Shown here: positions 5,945-21,706 of the stretch, piece by piece
Layout: the number at the start of each line of letters is the position of its first letter
Numbering within the stretch: the stretch's first letter is position 1
Origin: an uncultured Gammaproteobacteria bacterium
GTDB taxonomy: Bacteria; Patescibacteriota; Patescibacteriia; JAHIZJ01
Length of the DNA: 54,721 bases
Assembly (NCBI GenBank): GCA_964371245.1
Contig: CAYJKP010000002.1
Span: 46,239 to 100,959, forward strand
Direction of reading: 5' to 3'
Translations under genes and position numbers: made by a program
The notes under the pieces: model-generated
Told to the model about the DNA's origin: nothing
Database searches by the model: none
Seen by the model: the letters and a program-made list of their open reading frames with translations, nothing else

Positions 5945-8900
5945 TTACGATATTGTAATCGTTAGCGTGCCAGAATAATCACCAATTCGCCGGAGATTTA
6001 GGTTGCCGATGGATAACACCGGTTCGATGTAATATTTGCCCATGCCATAGCTCGGGTTTCCGGGGCAGCCGGTTGTGCACGCGTCCGCATCAACAACCGT
6101 AATGCTCGAATCAGGATCCAATGTGTTACTCGAGGCGGCGCAGACGCCGGCGCTCGGACATGAGCCGAGTTCGGCGCCATAGCGGGCGGTTACCGTGTCA
6201 TTTGGATCGAAGGTAACGTCGCCCGCTCGGATGAGATCATGATTGTACCAGCCGGTGGCGGTATAGGTCGATGCGCCGATTTGCAACCCGTAGACCAAAT
6301 AATATTGATTCCTATTTATCTGTAATGGTGTATGAGGCAGATAGGCGTACGTGCCCGTTCCGATATAAATAGCATTATGCCAAGCCGAACCGTCATATTC
6401 CGTATAATAAAGGTATGTACCTAAGTCTACGTCAGTGACGTTATAAAAAACCCACAAGCTCGTGCCATCGGTCGTAATCGATGGATTCGACGCGGTGGAA
6501 CCCACTACTGAACCATCGTAGATAGTTTCTTCGCCTCCCCACGATCCGTTGTACTTCCGGAGGCGGATCTTACCGATATCAGCGATTCCTACGGTTTCCA
6601 CGTATGTTAAATATATGTTACCGCCGCTGTCGCCGATCGCAGAGTATCCATTGCCGGGATCAGCGGTATCGATCTGCGCAGCGCCGTTCCAGGAACCCGT
6701 ATACGTGTCATAGGTAAGCTTAGTTGCTGAATTGCGATAGAAGAGCATGACTTTATCGTTTGCGTACAATACAAGCGAAGGATCGTCGTTCGTCATCGCC
6801 CAGCTCCAAGAGGAAGCCCAGCTTCCCCCGCTCGGTTTACGATAGACCGCGATGCCGTTGCTCGCAGATGCGCCCTTGACTGCTACCATGAGGTCGCCGT
6901 CAGATTCCGCCACGATCGAACATTCCGTATAGACTATTCCGCCACCAGGGGCCACGACTGTTTCTTCGCCCCCGATCGACCATTGCGTGCCGGATTTTGT
7001 CAGGAGACGGTAATTTATGCCATCCCCTCTTTCGTAGCAGAGATGGATATTCTCGCTCGCGTCCATATAGGTCGCCGGGATACTGCTTGACTCTCCGGCG
7101 CCCAGCGGTGATCCGGTAATGGCTTCGGACCAGGTAGCCGTCTTGTCAGAGCTTTTTTTAAACCTCACCGACGTGCCGTCATTGTAGGCAACGACAATGA
7201 TGCCGTCGACAGTCGCCGCGATATTTCTCGTCTGAACGGTCGGTAAACCGTTTGTGCTTTGCGAATAAAACGAGCCGGTCGTAAGGGAGCGCAGATGCTC
7301 GAGCGTCGCGACCGCCGACCAGCCCACGCCCGTACCGCGATCGTCCCAAACCTCGATTTCCTGGCTATTCGACTGAAGCAGGGATGCAGTGGAATCGCCG
7401 GCCGTGCCCAGCGTATAGTCCGTAAACGCGACGCTGGCTGGGCCGTTGTCGCTCAATGAAAAAGTGGCCGTTGTGGTCAGATTCGGATACGAAAAGCCGC
7501 CGGTGGGATTGATCGCCACCGCCAGTGAATTAACCGTGTCATAGGCGCGAAAATAATAAGTTGTGCTCGCGCTAACATTATTGCCCCAGATTGTAAACTC
7601 AAACTCAGTTATTTTATCGGCCGTGAAATCGAAGGTTGATGACGTGCTTCCCGATTCATTATATGTGCCGCTGGTATCGGTATCGCTTAAGACTCGGCTG
7701 TCGATCGTGCCATCATCAGTCGCATTATCGCCATCGTAATAGCACCAAATAGAAAAAGAACACAGACCGACTTCAACCACATTGGTTGCCGTGGCGAACG
7801 TTGAGCTTGTTGAATATTGCAGCTTGAAACGGATGTTATCCTCTCCAGCACCGCCGAGTTCGGCAATTGATAGGCGCAGTTTAATCGGCTCTTTTTTCCC
7901 GATTTTGTCGGGAGGGACGGCGTTTTCTGCCGCGTATGGTACGACCGGCGTGGCCACATCCTCGTCACCATACATCCGCCAGTTCTGCGAATAGGGCGAA
8001 AATATATTACTCACGTTGAAGCGGAAGTCGATATCGTAATAATCATAGTACGTCCAGTTCGCATCAGACGTGCACGTCGTAGTGCAGTACCCGCCCCGCG
8101 AGGCCGTGGCGTTATAATTAAGATTATAATAGTCGCCGCCAGCCGCAATATACGAATAATTTGCCGCTGTCTGGTAATAACATGACGTTGTGGCGGAAGT
8201 CGTGAGCTGGACGCGATATGTTTGGCCCGTCTTCAGATCCACGGTGCTTGAAAGCGCCACGTCATACCACGTGAGAGTTGTGGTTACGGCCGCGGCAGTA
8301 ACGACTGTTCCGGTGGCGAGCTGCGTATCACTGCTATCACGAATATCATATGTCAGGTCAGCGGTTGGGATGCTGCCGCAGGCGCCTGCTTTTTGGATGT
8401 AGAAACCGACCGTGTCGGTCTTCTTTGACGGGCCGTAGACCGTAATCTTTTCAGCCCGGGAATAGTTGACGTAAATAGCCCAATTGGTGTAGGTAGTGTT
8501 TGAATTTCCTTCATCAGTGGCTCCATCAATAAAATAGATAGGTTGGTATCCTTGATTGGACCAAGAAGTACCATTGTACCATTCTGTGTTCGACGCCACA
8601 TCACTGACGTTCCGGTACGGGGTCATGAGGTTGTTCGGCGTTTCCCGCCGGATGCCGATATAATTGGACCCCCCGATAGTGCCAGAAACATACTGGACGA
8701 CGATGTGGTACACCGTACCGGCCGTGAGCGACGGCTGGGCATTTCGCGCAAACGAAAATACGTTCCACCCTGTTGCAGTCGGGGCATTATCGACATACGA
8801 ACTCGCGACGCTGCCGGAAAGCCAGGTTCCAGAAGGGTCGCCGCTAGAATCAGACTGCAAGCCAAACCGATACGTCGGCGATGACACTACGGCGTGCAGA

Positions 8901-10384
8901 TAGAGTCGGATGGCGGTTACTTTCTGAGTGGACAAAGCCGTGAAGCTGATTGCGGACCGGAGCGTGGATCCGGTCATGCTACCCATACTCGAGGCGGTAG
9001 AGGTGATGAATTGATTCCCCCAATATTCACTCCAGTCGACCTCGAGATACGGATCAGAGCTGACGCCCGTATATTCGCTCATGCGACCGTTGGCCCACGA
9101 ATAGCGGTCTGCACCGTTCGGCGTCCAGGCATATCGGAGCTCGAAGTCGGTATCGCCGTTTATTGAGACGTTCGTCGGCGAGGCGATGGCATATGCCTTC
9201 CAGCCAGTAGATCCCGCCCAGTCCAGTGTCCCGTCATACGATCCGACCGCGTCCCAGTCAGTCGAGTCAAGCGATGCACCGATGTCATCGGCGCCCATAT
9301 AATAATCAATATCCCAGGTGGACGGAGCATATTTCCAATAGGTATAGGAATTGGCGTAGATATTTAGGGTCGCGCTGGTGATGGTAATTGAGTCATCCAG
9401 TGCCGACGTATCAAAACTGAGATACATGCGATCATCATCATATGTAGCTCCTGCACAACCAGAATAATGATCCTCGCCGACCAAAGCTACTGTGCTGGTG
9501 GCGTAAATATCATATATCGTACCCGATGTACAATCAGTACTATGAATGTATCCGTCGACCGCCGCCGTGGAATAGAAATAGATGCTGGGGTCAAGCGCCG
9601 CCTCTCCCGTCCCGAAACCCGTAATCATAATATCGTTGTCTCGCCGGTCGATTGTAAAGCCGCTCGATACGAGATCGTCAAAGCTGACCTGGATGCTGTC
9701 ATCGAGAATCAGGTTAAGCGCGGTAAGTTTTCCGTTGTCCCGCGGTTCGACGAACCGGCTCGACAAGTCAGTGACAAGCGTATAGCCCGATTCGCTGATC
9801 GAACCGTCGTTTTGGAAATAACTGGTCCATTTTGTAAAACGATTTTGACTGTCGAATTCGACGCGATAGTCAAGCTTCTTGGCCTGTCTTTTTGACAGCT
9901 CGTCGATATATTTCCGCTTTCCTTTTTGGACGACATACGGCCGGAACGCGAAGGTTTTTCCAGCCACGGAGAAGCGCAGCTGATTTTGGCTGAATAGTTC
10001 AGTGGCGGCCTCAGAAAATGTCTGCCAGGCTCCGTCGACCTGCCGAAAACGAGGGGTCCGCGAACAGCGCATTTTGCTTTCCGTTCCGGACCGAACAATA
10101 TCGCACGTTTCATTGACGATCTCGCCCGACTCCTGGTCGAGTGGCGAAACAAATTCTTCAGCCCGTTTTGCCACTTCCGAAACAGGATTGATTTCTCGGT
10201 CTTTTACGACTGAGCGCTGTTCGCCCGCCGGGAAAAAGCCGCCCCAAAAATCAGATTCACCGGCGATCGAATACAGACTGGCGGCTGAAACTAGACCGCT
10301 GTCCGACAAAAAAAGGAGGGTGAAAAAGACAACCGCGAATTTTTTTACTAAATTGCGTGCTTTTTTTCGCCGCATGAAAAACAT
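5945..10384 (-). CDS. 1479-aa secreted multidomain adhesin with a C-terminal WxL-like domain interrupted by a BNR/Asp-box beta-propeller
   Basis: N-terminal signal peptide; DNRLRE-like segment (YLSFDTSALDDSITITSATLNIY); two jelly-roll-like repeats (SLTAGTVYHIVVQY, DLKTGQTYRVQL); VWDDRGTGVGWSA and terminal GDYSGTLTITIS match the small WxL paralogs; Asp-box-like KSSDKTATW. Confidence 0.8.
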   Translation of the reverse strand: MFFMRRKKARNLVKKFAVVFFTLLFLSDSGLVSAASLYSIAGESDFWGGFFPAGEQRSVVKDREINPVSEVAKRAEEFVSPLDQESGEIVNETCDIVRSGTESKMRCSRTPRFRQVDGAWQTFSEAATELFSQNQLRFSVAGKTFAFRPYVVQKGKRKYIDELSKRQAKKLDYRVEFDSQNRFTKWTSYFQNDGSISESGYTLVTDLSSRFVEPRDNGKLTALNLILDDSIQVSFDDLVSSGFTIDRRDNDIMITGFGTGEAALDPSIYFYSTAAVDGYIHSTDCTSGTIYDIYATSTVALVGEDHYSGCAGATYDDDRMYLSFDTSALDDSITITSATLNIYANSYTYWKYAPSTWDIDYYMGADDIGASLDSTDWDAVGSYDGTLDWAGSTGWKAYAIASPTNVSINGDTDFELRYAWTPNGADRYSWANGRMSEYTGVSSDPYLEVDWSEYWGNQFITSTASSMGSMTGSTLRSAISFTALSTQKVTAIRLYLHAVVSSPTYRFGLQSDSSGDPSGTWLSGSVASSYVDNAPTATGWNVFSFARNAQPSLTAGTVYHIVVQYVSGTIGGSNYIGIRRETPNNLMTPYRNVSDVASNTEWYNGTSWSNQGYQPIYFIDGATDEGNSNTTYTNWAIYVNYSRAEKITVYGPSKKTDTVGFYIQKAGACGSIPTADLTYDIRDSSDTQLATGTVVTAAAVTTTLTWYDVALSSTVDLKTGQTYRVQLTTSATTSCYYQTAANYSYIAAGGDYYNLNYNATASRGGYCTTTCTSDANWTYYDYYDIDFRFNVSNIFSPYSQNWRMYGDEDVATPVVPYAAENAVPPDKIGKKEPIKLRLSIAELGGAGEDNIRFKLQYSTSSTFATATNVVEVGLCSFSIWCYYDGDNATDDGTIDSRVLSDTDTSGTYNESGSTSSTFDFTADKITEFEFTIWGNNVSASTTYYFRAYDTVNSLAVAINPTGGFSYPNLTTTATFSLSDNGPASVAFTDYTLGTAGDSTASLLQSNSQEIEVWDDRGTGVGWSAVATLEHLRSLTTGSFYSQSTNGLPTVQTRNIAATVDGIIVVAYNDGTSVRFKKSSDKTATWSEAITGSPLGAGESSSIPATYMDASENIHLCYERGDGINYRLLTKSGTQWSIGGEETVVAPGGGIVYTECSIVAESDGDLMVAVKGASASNGIAVYRKPSGGSWASSWSWAMTNDDPSLVLYANDKVMLFYRNSATKLTYDTYTGSWNGAAQIDTADPGNGYSAIGDSGGNIYLTYVETVGIADIGKIRLRKYNGSWGGEETIYDGSVVGSTASNPSITTDGTSLWVFYNVTDVDLGTYLYYTEYDGSAWHNAIYIGTGTYAYLPHTPLQINRNQYYLVYGLQIGASTYTATGWYNHDLIRAGDVTFDPNDTVTARYGAELGSCPSAGVCAASSNTLDPDSSITVVDADACTTGCPGNPSYGMGKYYIEPVLSIGNLNLRRIGDYSGTLTITIS

Positions 10385-10469: not shown

Positions 10470-12158
10470 TTATTTACTCTCCGGCGTTAATCGATAAAAG
10501 ACAAAATCGTCGATCATGACCCCTTCCTGGTCAGAACGATTTTCCAAGATGCTCGTGATTTTATAGGTCGCGCCCTGCTCGTCCGTTTCATAGCCGTAAT
10601 AATAGTTCGGGTGTTTTGGATCAAGCGGCACCATCTCGAGATACCCCTTATCCTTCAGCTCAACTTGAAACACATTATTTTCATCGGTCGTTTTACTCCG
10701 ACCGGCGACAATCGGATAGTGGCCTTCCTTTGCCTTGTAGGCTTCAAGCGCCGCCTGGATGGTGTGCAAATCGGCTTTGCGCTGGTTGTCAACTTTTATC
10801 TGCTCGCCGAGGACAACCCGCAAGCGAGCGTCTTCCTCCTGCTGCTGCACGTTCATCTGTTCTACTCGTTGCCGGACCTTCTCTTCCTTCCACCAGTGCC
10901 GATAATAGATCGCGCCGCCGATTGCGACGAGGATGATGGCGAGAATAATGACGTTGCGTTTGCTTCGGAAAAACGATTTGAAGAATGACAGCCAGAGATT
11001 CTCTCTTGGAATCATTATTTGCTGGCCGGGCTCGAGTTTGTATGGCGGTTTCAGTTTGTTGACTCGGGCGAGATATTTCCAATTTGCCTGATATTGGGAG
11101 GCAATGCTGTCAATCGTATCCCCCGCGACCACCGTATGAACACGCATCTTCGACTGTTCCTTGACGACTATCAGCTGAAAGAGCAGCCGGAAAATCACAG
11201 CCAGCGCGATCATCAAGCCGATGAGAATCAACAGCCGGTATGGGATGATCCAGACGTCAATCGTTTTTGTTAGCGGCCCGCCGCCTTCATAGGACACGTC
11301 AACGGTTGTTCGAAATTTGCCGATAAACGGCGGGTCGTTCCAATTCACTGGGATGGTTATGTCTTTGCCTGGCATGACCATGCCGAAACTCATCCGATCA
11401 TAGGTCTTGATTGTCCGGCCAAATATGTTTTTTATCCGGATCTGGCCAAACGGCTCAACCCGGACATTGCCGCCATTATGGAGAACGAGTGAATATTGAA
11501 CCGCTGGTTTAAAACCGAGGTATTCAAGCACCCGATCCCACCAGATTATTTCCTTTTGGAACGTCAACCGGCTGTAAAATTTGTAGTTAATTTGGGTAAA
11601 GTCGAGATTTTTGTGAATTTCGCCGGGCACCGTGACATACATGCGCACGCCGACTCGGGTGACAATGCCGATACCGACGCCCTGACCATGCGGCGTCTGC
11701 TCCTTCACCTCCTGCATGACGATTGCCCCGAAATGCTCACCCACGTCAATATTGTCTTTCGGTACCGTCACGGTAAACGGTACTTCTATCTCTTTGTGCG
11801 CCGGCACCACGACCGAGCTTTGGCTCATTTTTACCCAACTGCCGACGTCCTGTTTCGGGGCGTTGTTTTCGAGAGGAGCAAAAGCGCCGTCAGACGTCGT
11901 TTCCGCGTCCACCGCATTGAGCAGGAATGTCAGTGTTTCGTCACTATTATTTGAAATCAAAGCGGCATCTTCCTTCGTCTCGCCGGGGTTGATCGTATAA
12001 ATAAACCAGGAATCAGAATACTTAACGCTCGGATCCGGGTGCGCCGGCATGATACCGCGATCACCAACCGCGAGGGCTGAAACATTAGACGCATGGCCAA
12101 ATAAAAATAGCAGGCCACAGGCGAAGAAGAAAAGTTGAAGGAAGATCTTTTTAGTCAT
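10470..12158 (-). CDS. DUF916/DUF3324-type (WxL-interacting) membrane protein fused to LysM and a C-terminal T2SS-G/pseudopilin-like domain
   Basis: WFIYTINPGETKED...NAVDAETTSDGAF...DVGSWV...EVPFTVTVP...GEHFGAI...RVGVRMYVTVPG (DUF916 pattern); LHNGGNVRVEPFGQIRIKNIFG (DUF3324); TM; HTVVAGDTIDSIA...LARVNKL...LEPGQQIMIP (LysM); TM; DNQRKADLHTIQAALEAY...YP...PLDP. Confidence 0.8.
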   Translation of the reverse strand: MTKKIFLQLFFFACGLLFLFGHASNVSALAVGDRGIMPAHPDPSVKYSDSWFIYTINPGETKEDAALISNNSDETLTFLLNAVDAETTSDGAFAPLENNAPKQDVGSWVKMSQSSVVVPAHKEIEVPFTVTVPKDNIDVGEHFGAIVMQEVKEQTPHGQGVGIGIVTRVGVRMYVTVPGEIHKNLDFTQINYKFYSRLTFQKEIIWWDRVLEYLGFKPAVQYSLVLHNGGNVRVEPFGQIRIKNIFGRTIKTYDRMSFGMVMPGKDITIPVNWNDPPFIGKFRTTVDVSYEGGGPLTKTIDVWIIPYRLLILIGLMIALAVIFRLLFQLIVVKEQSKMRVHTVVAGDTIDSIASQYQANWKYLARVNKLKPPYKLEPGQQIMIPRENLWLSFFKSFFRSKRNVIILAIILVAIGGAIYYRHWWKEEKVRQRVEQMNVQQQEEDARLRVVLGEQIKVDNQRKADLHTIQAALEAYKAKEGHYPIVAGRSKTTDENNVFQVELKDKGYLEMVPLDPKHPNYYYGYETDEQGATYKITSILENRSDQEGVMIDDFVFYRLTPESK

Positions 12159-12888
12159 GTTTTTTCGCTAAGCATAATATTGAAACACCAAACGGAAAGT
12201 TAAAATACTTGAGAATGTACGCCTCGAGCCGGAGCAACAGGACAAAAAACCCATTCAACCAGCCCGGCAACAACACGTAGGAGGTTTTTGGCTGTCCATC
12301 AGACCAGAGACTCGTAATTAACCGGTAGAAAACGATCGGGAGGAATAGGAAGGAAATGCAATAGCTGCGTTTAATCGTCTCAAAGCCGGCGGCGTTCAGT
12401 TTCCGATGCATATCCGATAACACGTAGCGTCGATAGTGGTGCAGCGCTTCGTCATGCCGCGACCAAAGAAACTGGTACGCAGGCGACAACAGAAAGAAAA
12501 TTCCGCCGGGTTTCAACACGCGATAGACGTTTTCAATGGCTTTTTCGTCGTTCTTGAGGTGTTCCAAGATATCAAAAGCCGTCACGGCATCGTAGGAATT
12601 CTCAGGAATTGTGAGGTTCTCGACATCGCCCTGACGAACCTCGGTAATTCCCCGCCGCTGGCAGAATTTCAGGGCCTCGGGTGAACAATCTATCCCCTCT
12701 ACTTTACCAAACTTTCGCAATATTTCAAAATTAATGCCTGTTCCGCAGCCGAGGTCTAATATTTCAACATCTGAATCGGTTTTTGTCAAATACTTTTTCA
12801 ATAATACCTCAATAATCTTCCGCCGGCCTTGATGCCACCAGTAATGTGTCTCTAAATCATACATTTTTTGATATTCCCCGATTTTCAT
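12151..12888 (-). CDS. Class I SAM-dependent methyltransferase (type often found in glycan loci)
   Basis: ILDLGCGTG motif I; YDAVTAFDILEHL; RVLKPGG; LWSRHDEALHHYRRY. Confidence 0.9.
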   Translation of the reverse strand: MKIGEYQKMYDLETHYWWHQGRRKIIEVLLKKYLTKTDSDVEILDLGCGTGINFEILRKFGKVEGIDCSPEALKFCQRRGITEVRQGDVENLTIPENSYDAVTAFDILEHLKNDEKAIENVYRVLKPGGIFFLLSPAYQFLWSRHDEALHHYRRYVLSDMHRKLNAAGFETIKRSYCISFLFLPIVFYRLITSLWSDGQPKTSYVLLPGWLNGFFVLLLRLEAYILKYFNFPFGVSILCLAKKHD

Positions 12889-14414
12889 TGTCGGGCCGTT
12901 TTTCGAATGATTATTGTGGCCATGGTATCGACATAGACCTCGTGCCAGGCTGGGTCGTGCCGAAGTAATTCAGCCAAGCGGTGATCGTGACGCAAAATTA
13001 CCCAATTCACCTGATATGAATCCAGAAGACTGCGCCAATTTTCATCGAGTCGGGTGATGGCCTGCCAGTCTTGATACACATTTTTTCCGTCCTGGCGCCA
13101 AATGGCCATGCGGCCGTCGATAAAGACCTTCTTGTCAGGCAGGTTCCAGAGCAGATATCCACCCCAATCATATTCATTATACATCGCTCCAGCCGGAAGA
13201 TGGCTTTTCAAATATTGAACTGCGTCGTATGGATACGTATTGGCCAGCGCTTTTGGCGACGCACTGGCCTGCCAATAGGTCGATACTTGAGACCAGGCGG
13301 CCAGTCCGAGTGCGGCCACACCAATACTTATGACAATGATATTTTTCGTCATCCGCTCAATGGCCTCTGACGGCCAAGCTTGAACCAGTAATATCCAAAG
13401 CGGGGTGACCACTACCATAAACAGTGGCAGATATCGCCAACCAGTCAGCGCCAAAAAGAAAAAGACAACCGCGATAAATGTAAGGGTGTAATCAATCTTC
13501 TTCCACCCCCGTATCATGAGCAATACTAATAGTGCTCCAAAGAGCAATAATTCCAGGCCTGGAATATGCTGGAGACTGACCGACTGCCATTCATTAATCG
13601 TATTGCGGACATCAGCCGAGCCAACAGTCTGGATAAACGTATTATAGATCTCATGGTATAGCCGAAGACCGTAGGGGTTAACGAGCGTGATGAAGGCGCT
13701 GCCAGTTCCGACCGCGGCTAATTGGATTAAGCGGCTTAGCCGGAGCGTCCGAACGCTTGGCGTGCGTTTTGCGACGAGCTCCCCGATCGACTGATACCAG
13801 CGCTTGAGCACAGGTCGACTCAGTTCAGCCACAATAACCAAACCGATGATAAAAAGGCCGAGTATAAAACCGCCGTGGAGATTTGCCCACAGAAGAAAGA
13901 CGAGCGGGAGAAAATAGAGTGCTCGGCCTTTTTCGTTGGTAATAAATCGGTACAGAATAAACACAACGAGACTCAGTCCCAGTAAAGTGATCACTTGCGG
14001 CCGGACACCGAGCAACGGACCGCTCACGACCGCACCGAGTAACACGGCTAATGCTTGCAGACGCGCATCAGCCGAAATAATCTTCGCGGCCAAGCCAAAA
14101 GCAACCAGAGCGAGTAGGGAAAATATCACGGCGGCAATGATCCAGCCGGCCGGCCAACCGAGCGTCGCCAATCCATACAGACCGACGTCGGTCAGCCATT
14201 CATGCGCGATGACAGGATATTCGGGAAAAGTGTGCGAGAATTGATCGGTCGTTGGTACCTGTTTCTGCTCCCAGATATATTGTCCGGTCCGAATGTGCCA
14301 CCCAAGATCTGGATCAAGCAGCGGATGAAAGGTAAGGAAAAATGAAATACTAAGCAGCAGGCCAATGAATATTTTCTTCCGCCACGTTTTTTTATTTTGT
14401 TCGTTTCTTATCAT
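12885..14414 (-). CDS. Polytopic membrane protein, probable GT-C fold glycosyltransferase (paralog 2)
   Basis: About 11-13 hydrophobic segments; DPDLGWHIRTG, HEWL, WANLHGGF, NPYG; soluble C-terminal domain with YNEYDWGGYLLW...FIDGR. Confidence 0.7.
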   Translation of the reverse strand: MIRNEQNKKTWRKKIFIGLLLSISFFLTFHPLLDPDLGWHIRTGQYIWEQKQVPTTDQFSHTFPEYPVIAHEWLTDVGLYGLATLGWPAGWIIAAVIFSLLALVAFGLAAKIISADARLQALAVLLGAVVSGPLLGVRPQVITLLGLSLVVFILYRFITNEKGRALYFLPLVFLLWANLHGGFILGLFIIGLVIVAELSRPVLKRWYQSIGELVAKRTPSVRTLRLSRLIQLAAVGTGSAFITLVNPYGLRLYHEIYNTFIQTVGSADVRNTINEWQSVSLQHIPGLELLLFGALLVLLMIRGWKKIDYTLTFIAVVFFFLALTGWRYLPLFMVVVTPLWILLVQAWPSEAIERMTKNIIVISIGVAALGLAAWSQVSTYWQASASPKALANTYPYDAVQYLKSHLPAGAMYNEYDWGGYLLWNLPDKKVFIDGRMAIWRQDGKNVYQDWQAITRLDENWRSLLDSYQVNWVILRHDHRLAELLRHDPAWHEVYVDTMATIIIRKTARQ

Positions 14415-14498
14415 TGATCTAAGTGTAGCAAATTACCGTTGCCGTATCAAAAAACGGGCCGAGCCCGATCCGGCGAGTGTTTTGTATAAACATCGTAA

Positions 14499-16034
14499 TT
14501 ATTCTTGCGAGCCTCGGCGCACCAAAATCGAATACGCCGCATCTTCATAAACGGTTTCCCAATTACCGGTATCTTTCATTGCCTTCGTGACCGCGAGATT
14601 CTTTCGAACCAGTGCATAACTGACGTTATATTTGTCCAGGGCTTCTTCCCAACCCGCATCGAGATGACCGAGCTTCATCCAATCAAGGTAGACGTTTTTT
14701 CCATTCAGTTCCCAGATAGCCATCCGGCCGTCGATAAAAACCTTTCGTTCGGGATAGTTCCAAACGAGATAACCGCCGTAGTTATACTCATTTAACATTT
14801 CACCCTTCAGGGGACGGGCTTTGAGATATTGAACTGCCGCGTAGGGATAGCCGCCCTTGTCCGCCGCCTTGGCCGGATCAATGCCGAACTCCAAGAGCCC
14901 GGTGATCTGCTGCCGGCCAATGATAATGGCGGCAAAAACGAGTATCAAAAGGAAAAAATTTCGCTTGACGATCCGAGCGAGCGTATCACCCGTCAAGTGT
15001 TGTGCAATCATCACCCAAAAGGGCGTGATCGAGATCATCAGGAGCGGCAGGTTCCGCCAACTCGACATTCCAAGATAGAAGAAGACGGCGGTGATGCATA
15101 AATGGGTGAAATTTATCTTTTTCCAGGCGAAGAGAAGCAACAGCCCAAAAAGAATCAGGTAGATATTAAACTGCATGCTGAGCTGCTGCGATAAACTCAC
15201 CGGCGTCCATTCGCCGATGGTCTGCCGAACGAGCGCCGATCCGGTCGTGTTTATGAAGGTGTTGTAGACTTCATAATAGATTCTCAAGCCGTATGGGTTT
15301 ATGAGCGTGGCCGCGCCACTCACCAACCCGACGCCGGCGAGAGTAAACAAGCTCCGGCGGGACAACACGCTCAGCTCAATGGTTTTCTTTCGCCAGCGCT
15401 GGTAGATCTTCGCATACGTCTTCTTAAATATGGCGCGCAGCAATTCCACCAGCCAGAAAACAGCCAGCGCAAATAAGCCTAAAGAAAAACCGCCATGGAA
15501 ATTTACCCAGACGGCGAATAGCAGGGGAAGAAAATAAATGGCCCGGCTCCGTTCATTCACCCGAAATCGATAGACGATATAAAACACCAAGGCCAAACCG
15601 AGCATGCTGATCATTTGCGGCCGGACGCCAAGGATCGGCAGGCTGACGAGCAGCGCGAGCAGCGCCGCCAAAATCTGGTATTCCCGCCGCGCCGGGAAAC
15701 TCCGGCCGGCAATATAAAAAGCTGAGCCAGCGATCAACGAAAAAACGACTGACATGGCAATCGGACCGGCGGTCGTTCCCAGACTGTTCAAACCATAGAG
15801 GGTGAGATCCGACAACCACTCGTGAGCGATCCAGGGATATTCCGGAAAGGTGTGAGAAAATGGATCAGTGCTGGCCAGCGCCTTGTGTTCCCAGATATAC
15901 TGGCCGGAACGTAGGTGCCAGCCTAAATCCGGGTCCAGCGGAACCCGCATACCAAGAAAAATCATGATCAGAATAACTGAACCAAAAAAGACGGTTTTCG
16001 GGGTAATGATTTTCCTGAGCCAAGCCGTACTCAT
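14499..16034 (-). CDS. Polytopic membrane protein, probable GT-C fold glycosyltransferase (paralog 1)
   Basis: Same motifs as 12885-14414 (DPDLGWHLRSG, HEWL, WVNFHGGF, NPYG, NEYNYGGYLVW, FIDGR). Confidence 0.7.
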   Translation of the reverse strand: MSTAWLRKIITPKTVFFGSVILIMIFLGMRVPLDPDLGWHLRSGQYIWEHKALASTDPFSHTFPEYPWIAHEWLSDLTLYGLNSLGTTAGPIAMSVVFSLIAGSAFYIAGRSFPARREYQILAALLALLVSLPILGVRPQMISMLGLALVFYIVYRFRVNERSRAIYFLPLLFAVWVNFHGGFSLGLFALAVFWLVELLRAIFKKTYAKIYQRWRKKTIELSVLSRRSLFTLAGVGLVSGAATLINPYGLRIYYEVYNTFINTTGSALVRQTIGEWTPVSLSQQLSMQFNIYLILFGLLLLFAWKKINFTHLCITAVFFYLGMSSWRNLPLLMISITPFWVMIAQHLTGDTLARIVKRNFFLLILVFAAIIIGRQQITGLLEFGIDPAKAADKGGYPYAAVQYLKARPLKGEMLNEYNYGGYLVWNYPERKVFIDGRMAIWELNGKNVYLDWMKLGHLDAGWEEALDKYNVSYALVRKNLAVTKAMKDTGNWETVYEDAAYSILVRRGSQE

Positions 16035-16060
16035 ATCAATCAGTATACCAAAATATTCCT

Positions 16061-16096
16061 AAAACGAAAACCGCCCCAATAATCTCGGGGACGGCG
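16061..16096 (-). terminator. Intrinsic terminator after the small WxL genes
   Basis: CCG-T-CCCC GAGATTATT GGGG-CGG followed by TTTTCGTTTT. Confidence 0.55.
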
Positions 16097-16117
16097 TTAA
16101 ACGCGTTGTCGCTCGGT

Positions 16118-16696
16118 TTAGGTAACGGTCAGCGTCAACGTGGCCGAATAGTTGCCGGCTGCATAGGACGGCTGTTGCGTGAAGTTAAGGAGTGTGTTGT
16201 CGATCCGATAGGCACCCAAGCCGTTGCTGGCCGTGGCCACCATCAGATTGCGCGTCGCGTTCAGATATTGATCGTCGGTGCCGGCCGACACACCCGTCGA
16301 GCTAGCTCCGTTTAAATTTGCGATGTCGCCGGGTGACCAGCGCAGGGCGTTGCTTAAGGTAATCTGCCGATTGGCATCATTTACATCGACGTAATTCTCA
16401 ATCGATCCGGTCGTGGCTGACCAGCCAGCGCCGGTACCGCGATAATCGGTCACCAGGACATTATTCATGTTGATCGCCGCGTTCTGTAACAAACCAGCCG
16501 CGATATTGCCGAATGAGATATTCGTGTTCTGAGCCGCGATGTCTAAGGAGCCGGCGGTGATGTTTTGGTAGAGCTCGGAATTCGCCGTGTTGGCCGCCCG
16601 CGATACTTCCAATGAACCAAAAACCATGATCAGCGTAAAAGCAATAATCAACGTACTGAAGATTTTCTGGGTTAGGGCTTGTGTTTTGTTTACCAT
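16118..16696 (-). CDS. Small secreted WxL-type protein, copy A
   Basis: Signal peptide ending VSRA; VTDYRGTGAGWSAT (WxL D-x-R-G-T-x-x-G-W motif); C-terminal GNYSATLTLTVT. Confidence 0.8.
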   Translation of the reverse strand: MVNKTQALTQKIFSTLIIAFTLIMVFGSLEVSRAANTANSELYQNITAGSLDIAAQNTNISFGNIAAGLLQNAAINMNNVLVTDYRGTGAGWSATTGSIENYVDVNDANRQITLSNALRWSPGDIANLNGASSTGVSAGTDDQYLNATRNLMVATASNGLGAYRIDNTLLNFTQQPSYAAGNYSATLTLTVT

Positions 16697-16716
16697 GGAA
16701 GTATGGAAAGTATTTG

Positions 16717-17295
16717 TTAGCTGACGGTCAACGTCAATGTGGCTGTGTAGTTACCGGCTTGGTAGGACGGCTGTTGAGTGAAATTAAGAACGGTGTTGCT
16801 AATACGATAGGCGCCCAAGCCGTTGCTGGCCGTGGCCACCATCAGATTCCGGGTGGTATTGAGGTAGACATCGTCGGTGCCGGCGGTCACGCCAGTTATG
16901 ATTGAACCGTTTACGTTTCCGACATCGCCCGGCGACCACTTGAGAGCATTATTTAAAGTTATCTGTTTATTCGAATCGGTGACATCCACGTAATTCTCGA
17001 TCGATCCGGTCGTGGCTGACCAGCCAGCACCAGTCCCGCGGTAATCAGTCACCAGGACATTGTTCATGTTGATCGCCGAGTTTTGAGAATAACCAGCGGC
17101 GATATTGCCGAATGAGATATTCGTGTTCTGAGCGGCGATGTCTAAGGAGCCGGCGGTGATGTTTTGGTAGAGCTCGGAATTGGCCGTGTTAGCCGCCCGC
17201 GATACTTCCAATGAACCAAAAACCATGATCAGCGTAAAAGCAATAATCAACGTACTGAAGATTTTCTGGGTTAGGGCTTGTGTTTTGTTTACCAT
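16717..17295 (-). CDS. Small secreted WxL-type protein, copy B
   Basis: As copy A; N-terminus identical to A and C-terminus identical to C. Confidence 0.8.
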   Translation of the reverse strand: MVNKTQALTQKIFSTLIIAFTLIMVFGSLEVSRAANTANSELYQNITAGSLDIAAQNTNISFGNIAAGYSQNSAINMNNVLVTDYRGTGAGWSATTGSIENYVDVTDSNKQITLNNALKWSPGDVGNVNGSIITGVTAGTDDVYLNTTRNLMVATASNGLGAYRISNTVLNFTQQPSYQAGNYTATLTLTVS

Positions 17296-17315
17296 GGAAG
17301 TATGGAAAGTATTTG

Positions 17316-17891
17316 TTAGCTGACGGTCAACGTCAATGTGGCTGTGTAGTTACCGGCTTGGTAGGACGGCTGTTGAGTGAAATTAAGAACGGTGTTGCTA
17401 ATACGATAGGCGCCCAAGCCGTTGCTGGCCGTGGCCACCATCAGATTCCGGGTGGTATTGAGGTAGACATCGTCGGTGCCGGCGGTCACGCCAGTTATGA
17501 TTGAACCGTTTAAATTCGTGATGTCACCCGGTGACCAGCGCAGTGCGTTACTCAAGGTAATCTGTTTATTCGAATCGGTGACATCGACGTAATTCTCGAT
17601 CGATCCGGTCGTGGCTGACCAGCCAGCGCCGGTACCGCGGTAATCGGTCACCAGGACATTGTTCATGTTGATCACGGAGTCCTGAGAATAACCGGCAGCC
17701 AAATCGCCAAACGATATATTCGTGTTCTGGGCCGCGATGTCTAATGAGCCGGCGGTGATGTTTTGGTAGAGCTCGGAATTCGCCGTGTTGGCCGCTCGGG
17801 ACACTTCAAACGATCCATAGACCATCAATACGGTGAAAACAAGAATAATTACCGCAAATACTTCTTCTATTAAAAGCTTTTGTCGAGTCAT
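17316..17891 (-). CDS. Small secreted WxL-type protein, copy C
   Basis: As copy A, with a distinct signal peptide; ends GNYTATLTLTVS. Confidence 0.8.
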   Translation of the reverse strand: MTRQKLLIEEVFAVIILVFTVLMVYGSFEVSRAANTANSELYQNITAGSLDIAAQNTNISFGDLAAGYSQDSVINMNNVLVTDYRGTGAGWSATTGSIENYVDVTDSNKQITLSNALRWSPGDITNLNGSIITGVTAGTDDVYLNTTRNLMVATASNGLGAYRISNTVLNFTQQPSYQAGNYTATLTLTVS

Positions 17892-18054
17892 TTTACTTTT
17901 TGTTTTTTATTTTTTTACCCAAGAAAAAACACTCTTCCCAAAAGCAGAGCGTTTTCAGAACCGAATGTATCTTTGTTATCTTTGTGTTTGCCCTACTTTT
18001 GTTTTTTTTGGATTTTGGGCGTTTTTCTCTGTAAAAAAGAACCTTACATACTTA

Positions 18055-18083
18055 AGTATATCGCATTTTTTCCAATTTGTCAA
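18055..18083 (-). promoter_or_regulatory. Near-consensus sigma70 promoter driving the small WxL genes
   Basis: TTGACA-17 nt-TATACT; about 155-nt leader before ATG 17891. Confidence 0.8.
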
Positions 18084-18102
18084 GTTTATTCTCTAATCCC
18101 GG

Positions 18103-19908
18103 CTATAAAGGCTGACGGTTGACGAAACGGCGCATTCGTTTCCAAAAAATGGCTAGCGACAGCAACAAGGCTACCGAAACAAGCGAAATGTTTCGTCCAG
18201 CTGCTCGAATCGGTGTTAATCCAAATTTTACCTCAATTTTATGACTACCAGTTGGAATTATTATTTGCATCACGCCTACGTCGCTTGTCACCAGTGGCTC
18301 TCTCACCTGGCCATTGATTGCAACCTGCCAGCCCGGAAACCACAACGTATTTATTTGAAGGATGGATTCATTCTTTGCATCAATAGTGGCCGTATAGCGA
18401 GCTGCCTCAATCACGGGCGAATTGATTGATGCGTCACCGCTGACAATTTCGAGTTTCTCCGGAAATTTTATCGATGCGTCTGCCTGCATCAAAACGGCCT
18501 TCTTATAATCCGCAAGCGCTTGCGACATGAGCTCATGAAGCCGATCAACGGAAACGGCTTTTGAAAAGATGCTTGGTATCTCTGAAAAGAAATAAACTTG
18601 CGTGTTCAGTTGATCCGTCTCGAGGATGTTTCGGATTTCTGTTTCCCGCTCGCGGAACGGACGATAGTCTGCATCCGGCAACGGCGGCAGGGTGTATTCC
18701 GGCAAGGCGTAGGAAGAATTCAGGACCAGCGTTGCTCCGACCAGAATGATCGAAAGTACAGCGGGAGCAGAAAACCGGCGAATACTTTTTCGATAGACAA
18801 CCAGGACACCGCTCAGTATGCTCACCGAGAGACTAACCAAAGCCAGCCAGCGCCACGGAAACTGAAAGTCACGCAATACGCCAATGTGATCCCAGATGAA
18901 TTTCGAGCCGCGGCCGGTCATAAATACCGCCAGTGAAAAAACTGCCAGCCACCACCAGATGGTCGCCCCATAGGTCCGGCGCGTTTCTGGTTTTTCAAGC
19001 AGCGTATATATTGCTGTGATAACGACAATCAAGCCAGTTACGCCAATTAGAAAAATATATTCTTCCCAGTTCCCGATGATTAATTGTTTCAGGTTTAAAA
19101 AATATTTTGCATAGTCGCTGAAGAATGGGTACCAGAGGTTGAAGTTCGCTTGGCGCATCTCCACGATTGCAGGCAGCCAAAAAAACGCGCCGAGTCCTCC
19201 ACCAAAAAGTATAGCGAGTAGTGCGGTGAATATTTTTCGCCAGCGACGCCACGCCAGAATGGCGGCATAGACAACGGCGATCGGCAAAAACATCACTGCT
19301 AAGGCGTTGTTCGTGAGTAACAACGCGCCGGTCAATAAAGCAATCGCGAGAAAATATTTTCTGGCCGGAGCCGCTAGATATCGTGTCAGGGCGATTAAGA
19401 GAAATGGCCACAACCCCATGGCGAGAAGTTCGGCGTACGAGCCCCGAAGGTAGAGACTACCGAGGTGGTACGGCGACCAAATATAGAGCGTGGCGGAGGC
19501 CAGCCCGGCCCAAGAGTTTTTCCAGATTTGCCGGCTCCAAAAAAACATCGAAATATAGGCCAGAATAACGCTCACGACAATAACGGCCTTCACCGAGTTC
19601 AAAAGGTTGAATCCAATAAGATGGAACGCTTCAGCGAGATAATAAAAACCTGGCTGGATAAAATTGAAAATCGGCGCGCCGTAGCCGATCCAAACGTCGG
19701 GCGCCCAGCGCGGCTGGATGTTTCCCTGCCGAATGCCGAGATCGAACTCATACAGCCAGTTCATGTAGAGATTCCGGTCGTGATTTGACGGAAAACCGGC
19801 TTGCATGATCGCCGCCAAACATAAATACACGACAAGACCGCTGATACAAACAAACAGGGCAACTTTGTAATATTTCTTTATCCAGCTGAGATTATTTCTT
19901 TTCTCCAT
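18103..19908 (-). CDS. PTPS_related / YfhO-like membrane protein (probable GT-C glycosyltransferase), paralog 2; start placed at ATG 19908 (or 19914)
   Basis: GFPSNHD, PRWAPDVWIGYGAPIFNF, YLRGSYAELLA, LGAFFWLP, FQFPWRWL, and a C-terminal NTLWFPGWQVAING...GSHKIEVKF. Confidence 0.78.
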   Translation of the reverse strand: MEKRNNLSWIKKYYKVALFVCISGLVVYLCLAAIMQAGFPSNHDRNLYMNWLYEFDLGIRQGNIQPRWAPDVWIGYGAPIFNFIQPGFYYLAEAFHLIGFNLLNSVKAVIVVSVILAYISMFFWSRQIWKNSWAGLASATLYIWSPYHLGSLYLRGSYAELLAMGLWPFLLIALTRYLAAPARKYFLAIALLTGALLLTNNALAVMFLPIAVVYAAILAWRRWRKIFTALLAILFGGGLGAFFWLPAIVEMRQANFNLWYPFFSDYAKYFLNLKQLIIGNWEEYIFLIGVTGLIVVITAIYTLLEKPETRRTYGATIWWWLAVFSLAVFMTGRGSKFIWDHIGVLRDFQFPWRWLALVSLSVSILSGVLVVYRKSIRRFSAPAVLSIILVGATLVLNSSYALPEYTLPPLPDADYRPFRERETEIRNILETDQLNTQVYFFSEIPSIFSKAVSVDRLHELMSQALADYKKAVLMQADASIKFPEKLEIVSGDASINSPVIEAARYTATIDAKNESILQINTLWFPGWQVAINGQVREPLVTSDVGVMQIIIPTGSHKIEVKFGLTPIRAAGRNISLVSVALLLSLAIFWKRMRRFVNRQPL

Positions 19909-19927
19909 ATACATTCCCAGAAAGTGC

Positions 19928-21706
19928 TCACACTTTTTTCTTCGGCCACCGCCAAACACATATCAAACCGAGTCCAATGAGGGTGACGAATGAAACCAAA
20001 TCGGCTACCGCTCGAATTGTCGTATTGTGATAGTTTAGAACCAGTGTGTGCTGGCCCGGCGGAACCATAAATTCCATCAGACCGTAGCTTGAATTCATAA
20101 TGATTGTCACCGGCTGATTGTTCAGCTGCGCCGTCCAACCGGGGAAATAAAATGTGTTGATCCGAACGCGCGCTTCAGTTTGTGCTGTGATCGCGTACTC
20201 TTGCCGAGTCGTGCGTAGATTGACGGGGATGACGGTAGCGTTTCCCCGAATAACCTCCGTCTTGGGAAAATCAACGGCCTGCCCAGCAAGAATGCGGTCG
20301 CGCGTTTGATAAATATTTTTTTCAACCAACCCCTCAAGCGCGTCGAGATTATTGTAACGCGGAAAGATAGCTGTTTTTATTCCGAACGTGTTGTATTGCT
20401 CTAAAGTAAGAAATTGGTCGACGAGTGCCTGCTTCGGTTGGTAATGCCAATCGGCTTTTTTAGGAAAATATCCGTCCGGCGGACCAAGCCAGTCAGTCGA
20501 CCCGAGAATCAATAGAATAATGAGCGCCCCGCTGATTGGCAAAAACGAATACGTCCAGCGCGGACGGATCTTGCCAGCCAACCAGGAAAATAATTTCTGC
20601 AATTCTGGCCAAATGATCAGACCGGCCAGGAAAGCAACGCTCAAATCAAATAGCCCTAAAAACCTCCAAGGGAACTGAACGTATTTCAACAGCGGTACGG
20701 CTTCCCAAACAGGACGCGAATACACGGTTGTGGCGACGAGTGCGCCAATTGCGAGTAAAAGAAAATAGATGGCTGGGCGCGAAGTTTTCTGGGTGCGCCA
20801 ACTTTTTACTATCAAAACGGCGCCAACAAGACAGATAAGGCTGGCCACAAAGCTTACCTGAAGAAACACGACGCCGTTTGACCAGTAGTTCGAAAATAAT
20901 ATTTCCTTCAGTGAACTGAAATTATTATGAAAATCGTACGGTCCAGAGGTAAGATTGTCGAGATTTAAATACTGTCGCTCAAAAAATGCCGGTACCCAAA
21001 AAAAAGTACTGAGCAAAAAGCCAGTGGCCACGGCAGCCGCCTGAACCAAATAGGTCCGGATGTTCCGTTTCGAGAACAGAAGGATGAATAGAAGAATCGG
21101 CGGCAGGAATATCAGCATCGAAATATTATGCGATAAAACCAGGGCGGCAATGGCTCCGGCCAGGAGAAGAAAATTGCGCCGCGACTGAACGCGTCCGAGT
21201 CGCGAGGCGGCATAGAGGCATAACGGCGCAATACTCATCGCCAGATATTCGGAAAAAGCGCCCCGGTCGTACACCAGGCCGATGTGGTACGGCGCGAGCG
21301 TGAAAACGGCAGCTGAGAAGACTGCGCCCAGCCGACCAAAATATCGACGGGTAAATAGGTACATAAACCAGCCGCCAGCGAGAGTCGCCAAAATCAGCGT
21401 CAGCTTAACCGAGGCAATGATGCTGAACCCGATGAGATGCCACAGCTCGGCGAGATAAAAAAACAACGGCTGGGTAAAATTGAAGAGCGGGCTGCCGTAG
21501 CCGATCCAGACGTCAGGCGACCAGCGAGGCAAAAAATGTCCCTCGCGTATCCCGGCGTCAAATTCGCTTTGCCAGATCGGATATAATTCGAGATCGTGAT
21601 TTCTCGGATAACCGCTTTTGAGTAACGAAAAAACGGCGGCGAAGATCACCAGGCCGACCAACGCCACAATGAAGATAGTTTTCGATGAGGGCGGTCGCAC
21701 GAACAT
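19928..21706 (-). CDS. PTPS_related / YfhO-like membrane protein (probable GT-C glycosyltransferase), paralog 1
   Basis: GYPRNHD, PRWSPDVWIGYGSPLFNF, YDRGAFSEYLA, SHNIS, FFWVPA, VQFPWRFL, NTFYFPGW...GQHTLVLNY. Confidence 0.78.
   Translation of the reverse strand: MFVRPPSSKTIFIVALVGLVIFAAVFSLLKSGYPRNHDLELYPIWQSEFDAGIREGHFLPRWSPDVWIGYGSPLFNFTQPLFFYLAELWHLIGFSIIASVKLTLILATLAGGWFMYLFTRRYFGRLGAVFSAAVFTLAPYHIGLVYDRGAFSEYLAMSIAPLCLYAASRLGRVQSRRNFLLLAGAIAALVLSHNISMLIFLPPILLFILLFSKRNIRTYLVQAAAVATGFLLSTFFWVPAFFERQYLNLDNLTSGPYDFHNNFSSLKEILFSNYWSNGVVFLQVSFVASLICLVGAVLIVKSWRTQKTSRPAIYFLLLAIGALVATTVYSRPVWEAVPLLKYVQFPWRFLGLFDLSVAFLAGLIIWPELQKLFSWLAGKIRPRWTYSFLPISGALIILLILGSTDWLGPPDGYFPKKADWHYQPKQALVDQFLTLEQYNTFGIKTAIFPRYNNLDALEGLVEKNIYQTRDRILAGQAVDFPKTEVIRGNATVIPVNLRTTRQEYAITAQTEARVRINTFYFPGWTAQLNNQPVTIIMNSSYGLMEFMVPPGQHTLVLNYHNTTIRAVADLVSFVTLIGLGLICVWRWPKKKV

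Follow-up and report, generated by a model that had tools for sequence, protein, structure and literature searches.

According to a recent reinterpretation, WxL proteins are the subunits of a Gram-positive pilus that chaperones assemble; its adhesins consist of a variable N-terminal payload and an invariant C-terminal WxL domain, and 3,939 WxL-locus adhesins have been catalogued with this layout (bioRxiv 10.64898/2026.10.17.759780). Proteins of the DUF916/DUF3324 type are described as membrane chaperones, while the fibre is capped by large proteins that end in a WxL domain and lack a donor strand (Sleutel et al., bioRxiv 10.64898/2026.10.17.759780). A WxL gene cluster accordingly combines small WxL proteins, a large WxL protein, and a DUF916/DUF3324 protein (PMC10599100; bioRxiv 10.64898/2026.10.17.759780). 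In a screen of RefSeq reference proteomes, the chaperone-pilin system was found only in Bacillota, and the preprint makes no mention of a nested, split or propeller architecture (bioRxiv 10.64898/2026.10.17.759780). Nothing relevant was found in the searchable literature on WxL proteins in Patescibacteria, and this literature describes no WxL systems there. The DNA analysed here is a stretch of 54,721 nucleotides (nt) from an uncultured bacterium assigned to this phylum of ultra-small cells (assembly GCA_964371245.1, contig CAYJKP010000002.1, positions 46,239 to 100,959 of the forward strand), hereafter the window. It encodes the large secreted protein P0001, whose C-terminal WxL-like β-sandwich is, with high confidence, one domain in two pieces that carries a seven-bladed propeller in one of its loops.

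The closest described family are the tip adhesins of the Elr-type pilus of Enterococcus faecalis, such as ElrA. Like these, P0001 is large and secreted, has a variable payload and a C-terminal WxL-type domain, is encoded beside small WxL and DUF916-type proteins, and has no N-terminal donor strand of its own. It differs in that payload is present inside the WxL-type domain and not only upstream of it. The surrounding system differs from the Elr-type system in its Patescibacteria host, in its degenerate WxL motifs, and in a DUF916 partner with an extra LysM domain, a second transmembrane helix, and a tail resembling the type II secretion system protein G (T2SS-G). With regard to the design principle, the closest counterparts are the "split domains" of RTX adhesins, from which ligand-binding domains emerge, as in an Aeromonas hydrophila adhesin and in FrhA of Vibrio cholerae (PMC12077191, PMC10865825). 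In both designs a binding domain emerges from a loop of an immunoglobulin-like β-sandwich, and varied binding domains are found at equivalent sites. P0001 shows the single breakpoint and the halves collinear with uninterrupted homologs that characterise such a design, which is a resemblance of design only and not of common ancestry with the RTX extenders. The RTX split domains are extender domains of type I secreted proteins and thus stalk elements, whereas the split domain of P0001 is a WxL-type terminal domain thought to join the fibre or the wall. The principle of split domains in adhesins is already known; new are the host domain, the phylum, and the recurrent insertion site.

P0001 is encoded by a single open reading frame (ORF) at 5945..10384 on the minus strand, as are all parts of the protein described below. 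The frame is open without internal stops and comprises 1479 amino acids (aa) plus the stop codon. The protein starts with a signal peptide, followed by an unannotated N-terminal payload of ~925 aa and a β-sandwich stalk module; the split WxL-like domain comes last, at the extreme C-terminus. The N-terminal half of this domain (aa 961-1033, 7286..7504, positions 7-80 of profile A4 introduced below) contains WDDRGTGVGWSA with the first WxL-type motif and ends in EHLRS; DDRGTGVGW(SA) is located at aa 1014-1024 (7313-7345). It is followed by the nested insert of 349 aa (aa 1034-1382, 6239..7285), as measured against 17 uninterrupted relatives. The C-terminal half (aa 1383-1479, 5948..6238, A4 positions 80-160) includes LIRAGDVTFDP, in which AGDVTFDP occupies aa 1387-1394, followed by GMGKYYIEP (aa 1447-1455) and by GDYSGTLTITIS at the C-terminus (aa 1468-1479), which begins with GDYSGTLTIT (aa 1468-1477). 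The initial annotation, made from the letters of the window alone, had proposed a WxL domain split by a β-propeller of about 350 aa. All motifs it quoted are present in this one ORF, and its distances were close to those measured. Between DYRGTGAGWSA and the terminal GNY(S/T)ATLTLTV(S/T) of each of the three small WxL-like paralogs encoded in the window, 86 aa were counted (about 90 proposed), and the corresponding motifs of P0001 are 443 aa apart (about 450 proposed).

The split is apparent from profile searches. Profile A4 was built from four natural relatives that lack the interruption. In the 1.18-Mb genome to which the window belongs, it matches the ORF of P0001 twice, with model positions 7-80 at window positions 7283-7510 (E 2.8e-14) and model positions 80-160 at 5951-6244 (E 3.8e-13). 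The two matches are 1038 nt apart and meet at a single breakpoint, model position 80. The profile also matches the three small WxL proteins (E 3e-15 to 6e-14) and nothing else in the genome.

Uninterrupted relatives were found by an exhaustive representative search with the last 530 aa of P0001. Besides orthologs, this search returned two classes of relatives. Members of the first resemble the query in its middle part only; those of the second have C-termini that correspond to its two ends and contain hardly any residues between them. In P0041, residues 525-600 and 653-689 correspond to query residues 1-79 and 493-529, and in P0049, residues 239-308 and 325-401 correspond to query residues 7-79 and 449-529. 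Four, and then 17, natural uninterrupted domains were aligned with MAFFT and are collinear with both flanks of P0001, leaving one gap of ~345 columns. Where P0001 has 349 residues, the 17 relatives have 2-6, in good agreement with the proposed length of the insert.

The same domain makes up the small proteins. When the two flanks of P0001 are joined in silico, they align end to end with the small paralog P0003. Profile-to-profile comparison with hhalign relates the small-WxL family to the uninterrupted domains of large proteins (98.6%, E 7.5e-16, 135 columns) and to the joined flanks of P0001 (96.9%, E 1.9e-10). The profile breakpoint, the collinear alignments, and the profile-to-profile matches therefore identify the flanks of P0001 as two halves of the domain that composes the small proteins. 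The insertion point is located after the strand carrying the first WxL-type motif (G-W-x-x-T/S-A) and before the strand of the type ...I...-W-(I/T)-(S/T). The C-terminal half additionally contains two short Cys-bearing extra loops, GSCPSAGVCA and ACTTGCP (6062..6166, aa 1407-1441). Their four Cys residues (C1409, C1415, C1436, C1440) are invariant in the five orthologs and absent from the uninterrupted relatives; they probably form two disulfides that stiffen the domain half next to the insert.

The kinship of this domain with the WxL family of Pfam (PF13731) is most evident in the relatives. All 20 members of the small-protein family match PF13731 at E<=0.01 (best 3.2e-7), as do three of the 17 uninterrupted relatives of the C-terminal domain of P0001 (6.2e-6). 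Several relatives carry a precomputed PF13731 match or the NCBI name "WxL domain-containing protein". Among PDB sequences, neither a small WxL protein nor the profile of its family found a match. The classical WxL domain contains a proximal GWxL motif and a distal YxxxLTWxL motif near the C-terminus. In P0001, the proximal motif reads G-W-S-A (W1022) and the distal motif D-Y-S-G-T-L-T-I-T-I-S, which contains no Trp. The domain is referred to as WxL-like because the letters of the motifs are degenerate though their positions align.

Two AlphaFold2 models were computed. The first was based on 19 sequences, only four of them from uninterrupted relatives, and gave values of the predicted local distance difference test (pLDDT) of 70-89 for the propeller and 33-68 for the flanks. 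The second was based on 39 natural sequences and reached a mean pLDDT of 80.5 and a predicted template modelling score of 0.70. The small WxL proteins were left out of the modelling alignment, as MAFFT misplaced their central motif (0 of 38 correct locally). In the second model, blades 1-6 have a pLDDT of ~75-96, the N-terminal flank 84-91, and the C-terminal flank 68-92. Values below 50 are confined to the first 24 residues and to the connectors at aa 1042-1050 and 1371-1382. With the deeper alignment, both flanks are predicted confidently, and the insert is predicted as a propeller. Of the two outcomes that the initial annotation had named as refuting its reading, namely flanks that do not form one WxL-like sandwich and an insert that is no propeller, neither was observed.

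A Foldseek search against the PDB gave matches with a probability of 1.0. The best matches are the seven-bladed PLL/PHL lectins of Photorhabdus (PDB 8q83, 6rg2, 5mxf) with an E-value of 4e-12 and template modelling scores of 0.63-0.70, followed by the putative neuraminidase 4irt, GH145 enzymes, and sialidases. Assignment of the strands by DSSP yields six clear four-stranded blades and a weaker seventh. Seven Trp residues mark the blade ends (1085, 1135, 1189, 1232, 1282, 1335, and 1379) at a spacing of 43-54 aa. Blade 1 carries an Asp-box, SSDKTATW (aa 1078-1085, 7130..7153), within KSSDKTATW (aa 1077-1085, 7130-7156), the motif that had been read as Asp-box-like. In the orthologs P0008, P0009, and P0010 this box is the canonical S-x-D-x-G-x-T-W, which in such propellers lies between strands 3 and 4 of a blade, and the other six blades show degenerate G-S-W versions of the box.

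By sequence, the insert is assigned to the BNR/Asp-box propeller group. Its relatives match the Pfam family BNR_2 (PF13088), P0032 with an E-value of 2.8e-12 and a set of eight relatives with a best value of 9.5e-20, and the alignment profile matches PDB sialidases (E ~1e-7). Propeller fold and Asp-box, which define this superfamily, are both present, while the sequence of P0001 itself has no Pfam match. With the PLL/PHL lectins the insert shares the seven blades and a Trp-containing repeat. It differs from them in that the identity is only 15-19%, that PLL/PHL are free-standing soluble lectins, with sugar sites between their blades, and that the insert groups with BNR/Asp-box proteins by sequence; the match of PLL2 with the alignment profile is weak (E 1.6e-5). 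With the BNR_2/GH33 sialidases and the GH145 group (4irt, 5mum, BT3686) the insert shares the Asp-box, and 4irt and GH145 are among its top structural matches. It differs from BNR_2/GH33 proteins in having neither a conserved Arg triad nor a nucleophile pair, and seven blades instead of six. It is not placed among the catalytic GH33 enzymes, which carry an Arg triad, a Tyr/Glu nucleophile pair, and an acid/base Asp on the top face. The earlier wording "sialidase-like or lectin" is refined in that the blade number is not that of a sialidase.

These features bear on whether the adhesin could carry the propeller as an active enzyme and not as a lectin, namely as a glycosidase of the sialidase, pseudaminidase or GH145-like type. 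Such a role would be in line with the sequence kinship to BNR_2 and sialidases, with the occurrence of 4irt, GH145, and sialidases among the structural neighbours, and with the conservation of R1053 and D1108 in most relatives, yet it is unlikely in view of the residues that an enzyme would require. Inspection of 22 relatives for the Arg triad and the Tyr/Glu pair of sialidases, the former being a check suggested by the initial annotation, revealed neither in conserved form. The only polar candidates are R1053 at the start of blade 1, conserved in 16/21 relatives, and D1108, conserved in 19/22; R1053 is the only widely conserved Arg, and P0010, one of the orthologs, has Gln in its place. A structural role is indicated for the further invariant Arg residues (R1126, R1182, and R1276), since they recur from blade to blade at an equivalent point of the repeat. 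In the structural comparison, seven-bladed lectins score best, whereas sialidases have six blades.

The most likely overall explanation, and one that we consider probable, is a fibre-tip adhesin whose attachment domain presents a glycan-binding head. The side-by-side termini of the propeller would allow its insertion into a turn of 2-6 residues, and the propeller would hang from the loop on two flexible connectors, which are of low confidence in the model, leaving the sandwich undisturbed. If the Elr system of Enterococcus is taken as a guide, the WxL-like domain would be an acceptor, complemented by a donor strand that a small WxL subunit provides. As P0001 is predicted to have no free N-terminal donor strand, it would form the distal tip of a short fibre. 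The propeller nested in it would be a carbohydrate-binding, lectin-like head rather than a sialidase, and with this head the cell, which is likely episymbiotic, would probably attach to a surface or to a partner cell.

P0001 is read as a distal adhesin because its WxL-like domain is located at the extreme C-terminus after other domains, and because the small proteins carry a conserved N-terminal extension. In their mature form, the small paralogs consist of the WxL-like domain alone and this extension, in which N39, L42, and Q44 are invariant, a pattern compatible with a donor strand and not diagnostic of one. The functional statement that P0001 would be a distal adhesin, with the propeller as an extra and probably glycan-binding head on its attachment module, is held by analogy and with roughly even confidence. 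In practical terms, the propeller with its connectors is a concrete, expressible candidate for glycan or host binding. With P0001, a conserved locus of the WxL type that includes a candidate glycan-binding head is added to Patescibacteria, for which host attachment is a central question.

In the older view of WxL proteins (PMC9772566, PMC10599100), the domain would be a non-covalent anchor to the cell wall peptidoglycan, and the propeller would be shown at the wall surface and not on a fibre. This arrangement would agree with the Pfam description of the family as "surface cell wall-binding" and with a partner protein that matches "WxL Interacting Protein, peptidoglycan binding domain" and LysM. 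It is a serious rival for the host domain, though an unlikely one here. Cryogenic electron microscopy and genetics of the Elr system indicate donor-strand polymers (bioRxiv 10.64898/2026.10.17.759780), the small paralogs retain the strongly conserved N-terminal extension with its invariant residues, as expected of a donor strand, and three tandem small subunits fit a polymer.

Several points weigh against the explanation of P0001 as a fibre-tip adhesin with a lectin-like head. For the fibre and its donor-strand mechanism, a single Enterococcus preprint is the only source, and it reports the system as confined to Bacillota. The initial annotation had spoken of a propeller grafted into a loop of an "assembly domain", of which the loop insertion is confirmed, while the word assembly depends on this preprint of October 2026. 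The proteins of the window themselves are below the Pfam threshold for WxL, with E-values of 0.004-0.009 and 16.5-17.5 bits for the small paralogs at a cutoff of 25 and no Pfam match at all for P0001, and neither of the two classical motifs reads W-x-L in P0001. Contact and strand pairing between the flanks follow from homology and pLDDT and are not seen in coordinates. The seventh blade is predicted with low confidence (pLDDT 45-66). Lastly, in the choice between lectin and enzyme, the sequence kinship is with sialidase-type families and R1053 is conserved in most relatives.

The split layout is fixed in the lineage. A word-indexed homolog search with the C-terminal 530 aa returned only four orthologs with 47-92% identity, all from other metagenome-assembled genomes (MAGs) of Patescibacteria and all with the same architecture; all homologs found come from Patescibacteria MAGs. 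Among seven species-level genomes of the order to which the window belongs, five carry the locus (four of six genera). In each of these five, the same two matches are located 0.9-1.04 kb apart in an ORF of ~1500 aa. Synteny is retained with the 49%-identical ortholog and covers the genes for GT-C-like proteins, small WxL proteins, a methyltransferase, the DUF916 and LysM protein, the split adhesin, a signal peptidase, and histidyl-tRNA synthetase. Relative to the 92%-identical ortholog, the ratio of nonsynonymous to synonymous substitution rates (dN/dS) is 0.049 for the N-terminal flank, 0.137 for the insert, 0.070 for the C-terminal flank, and 0.082 for the N-terminal payload. All parts of P0001 are thus under purifying selection, the flanks most strongly.

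An assembly artefact, a chimera, and a decaying relic or pseudogene are excluded by the shared architecture, the synteny, and the purifying selection. A gene without a functional split domain, be it through decay of the flanks or through a chimera made by assembly or frameshift, might be suspected from the missing direct Pfam match of P0001 and from the low-confidence flanks of the first, shallow AlphaFold2 model, yet is extremely improbable. The architecture recurs in five independent genomes, which represent four genera, and in another four orthologs from the database. Moreover, the frame is open, no part of the gene is more constrained than the flanks (dN/dS 0.05-0.07), and these are confidently predicted with the deeper alignment. 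An intein or mobile insertion was likewise rejected, as the insert is a propeller akin to payload domains of other adhesins and is kept with its host gene in four genera.

The same loop is used in other Patescibacteria. In a 400-genome sample of the phylum (401 genomes in the count), the WxL-like domain of large proteins occurs in 28 genomes (20 of 320 genera) and is mostly uninterrupted. Inserts at the same point measure ~95 aa in L018 (G075) and L019 (L019/L034, G255) and ~180 aa in L023 (G323). A further insert of ~85 aa is present at this point in L031 (G055), a small protein of 310 aa. These four inserts end in a similar motif, G(H)..G(D/N).W.(F/I), of which L031 lacks the His, and may represent one family of small domains. 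P0038 (1801 aa) contains a repeat propeller of the GFGDSNN type with ~310 aa at the same point, and a propeller of this type is also present upstream in this protein. In its close relative P0031 from Candidatus Kerfeldbacteria, the domain is uninterrupted. The N-terminal region of both P0031 and P0038 (residues ~216-584) contains a relative of the BNR propeller of the window (E 5e-17); the module family is therefore used either upstream of the WxL-like domain or nested in it.

At least three unrelated types of insert thus occupy this loop, namely the BNR propeller, the GFGDSNN-repeat propeller, and the small domain of 85-180 aa. The "invariant" WxL module can itself carry payload in one specific loop. 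That evolution has repeatedly placed unrelated domains in this loop marks it as a surface site tolerant of insertions, one that probably lies at a distance from the donor-strand groove. Such a site would be useful for the modelling of fibre tips and for engineered display on WxL fibres. A more tentative proposal, which we regard as possible though not favoured, is that in Patescibacteria the loop after the strand of the first WxL motif is a natural "socket" for interchangeable binding domains in fibre adhesins and even in small subunits. According to this proposal, the locus would encode a donor-strand-assembled fibre outside Bacillota, with which episymbionts would grip the glycans of host cells.

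P0001 is the large adhesin-type member of a Patescibacteria WxL gene cluster comprising three small WxL proteins, one DUF916-type protein, and one large WxL protein. The DUF916 (WxLIP_PGBD)-type membrane protein, a candidate chaperone or partner of 562 aa, is encoded at 10470..12158 on the minus strand and matches PF06030 (E 7.4e-12) and LysM (E 9.8e-12). Its gene is located directly upstream of the gene of P0001 and abuts it, and the three small WxL genes follow 5.7 kb further on. These are arranged in tandem on the minus strand at 16118-16696, 16717-17295, and 17316-17891 and encode proteins of 192, 192, and 191 aa, respectively. Both the small and the large WxL genes are thus located within 10 kb of the DUF916-type gene.

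Directly ahead of the WxL-like domain, P0001 contains the β-sandwich module at aa ~800-960 (window 7505-7985, minus strand), which is recognised by the motifs NWRMYGDED, IKLRLSIAE.GG, WCYY.G, and TYYFRAYD. The same module precedes the domain in all large relatives that were read upstream, namely P0041, P0047, P0049, P0031, P0038, L015, L018, L019, and L023. In most of the remaining loci that encode large proteins, its closing Y-(Y/W)-F motif is likewise found shortly upstream of the domain. The module has no Pfam match and looks like a dedicated stalk or adaptor of this adhesin family. Searches of Pfam and NCBIfam with the whole of P0001, with its N-terminal 915 aa, and with the inserts of L018, L023, and P0038 returned no usable matches.

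Interleaved with the WxL genes at 12151-21706, and also at locus L035, are genes for four membrane proteins resembling the GT-C/PTPS_related families and for an S-adenosylmethionine-dependent methyltransferase. The order of these GT-C-like and methyltransferase genes is kept in the genome that encodes the 49%-identical adhesin ortholog, which suggests a glycosylation or modification function linked to the locus.

The DUF916 partner continues after its first transmembrane helix with LysM, the second transmembrane helix, a coiled coil, and the T2SS-G or pseudopilin-like domain (PF08334, E 9.7e-5). If its N-terminus is exported, the LysM domain would face the cytoplasm. The combination of DUF916 and LysM is kept in two orthologs.

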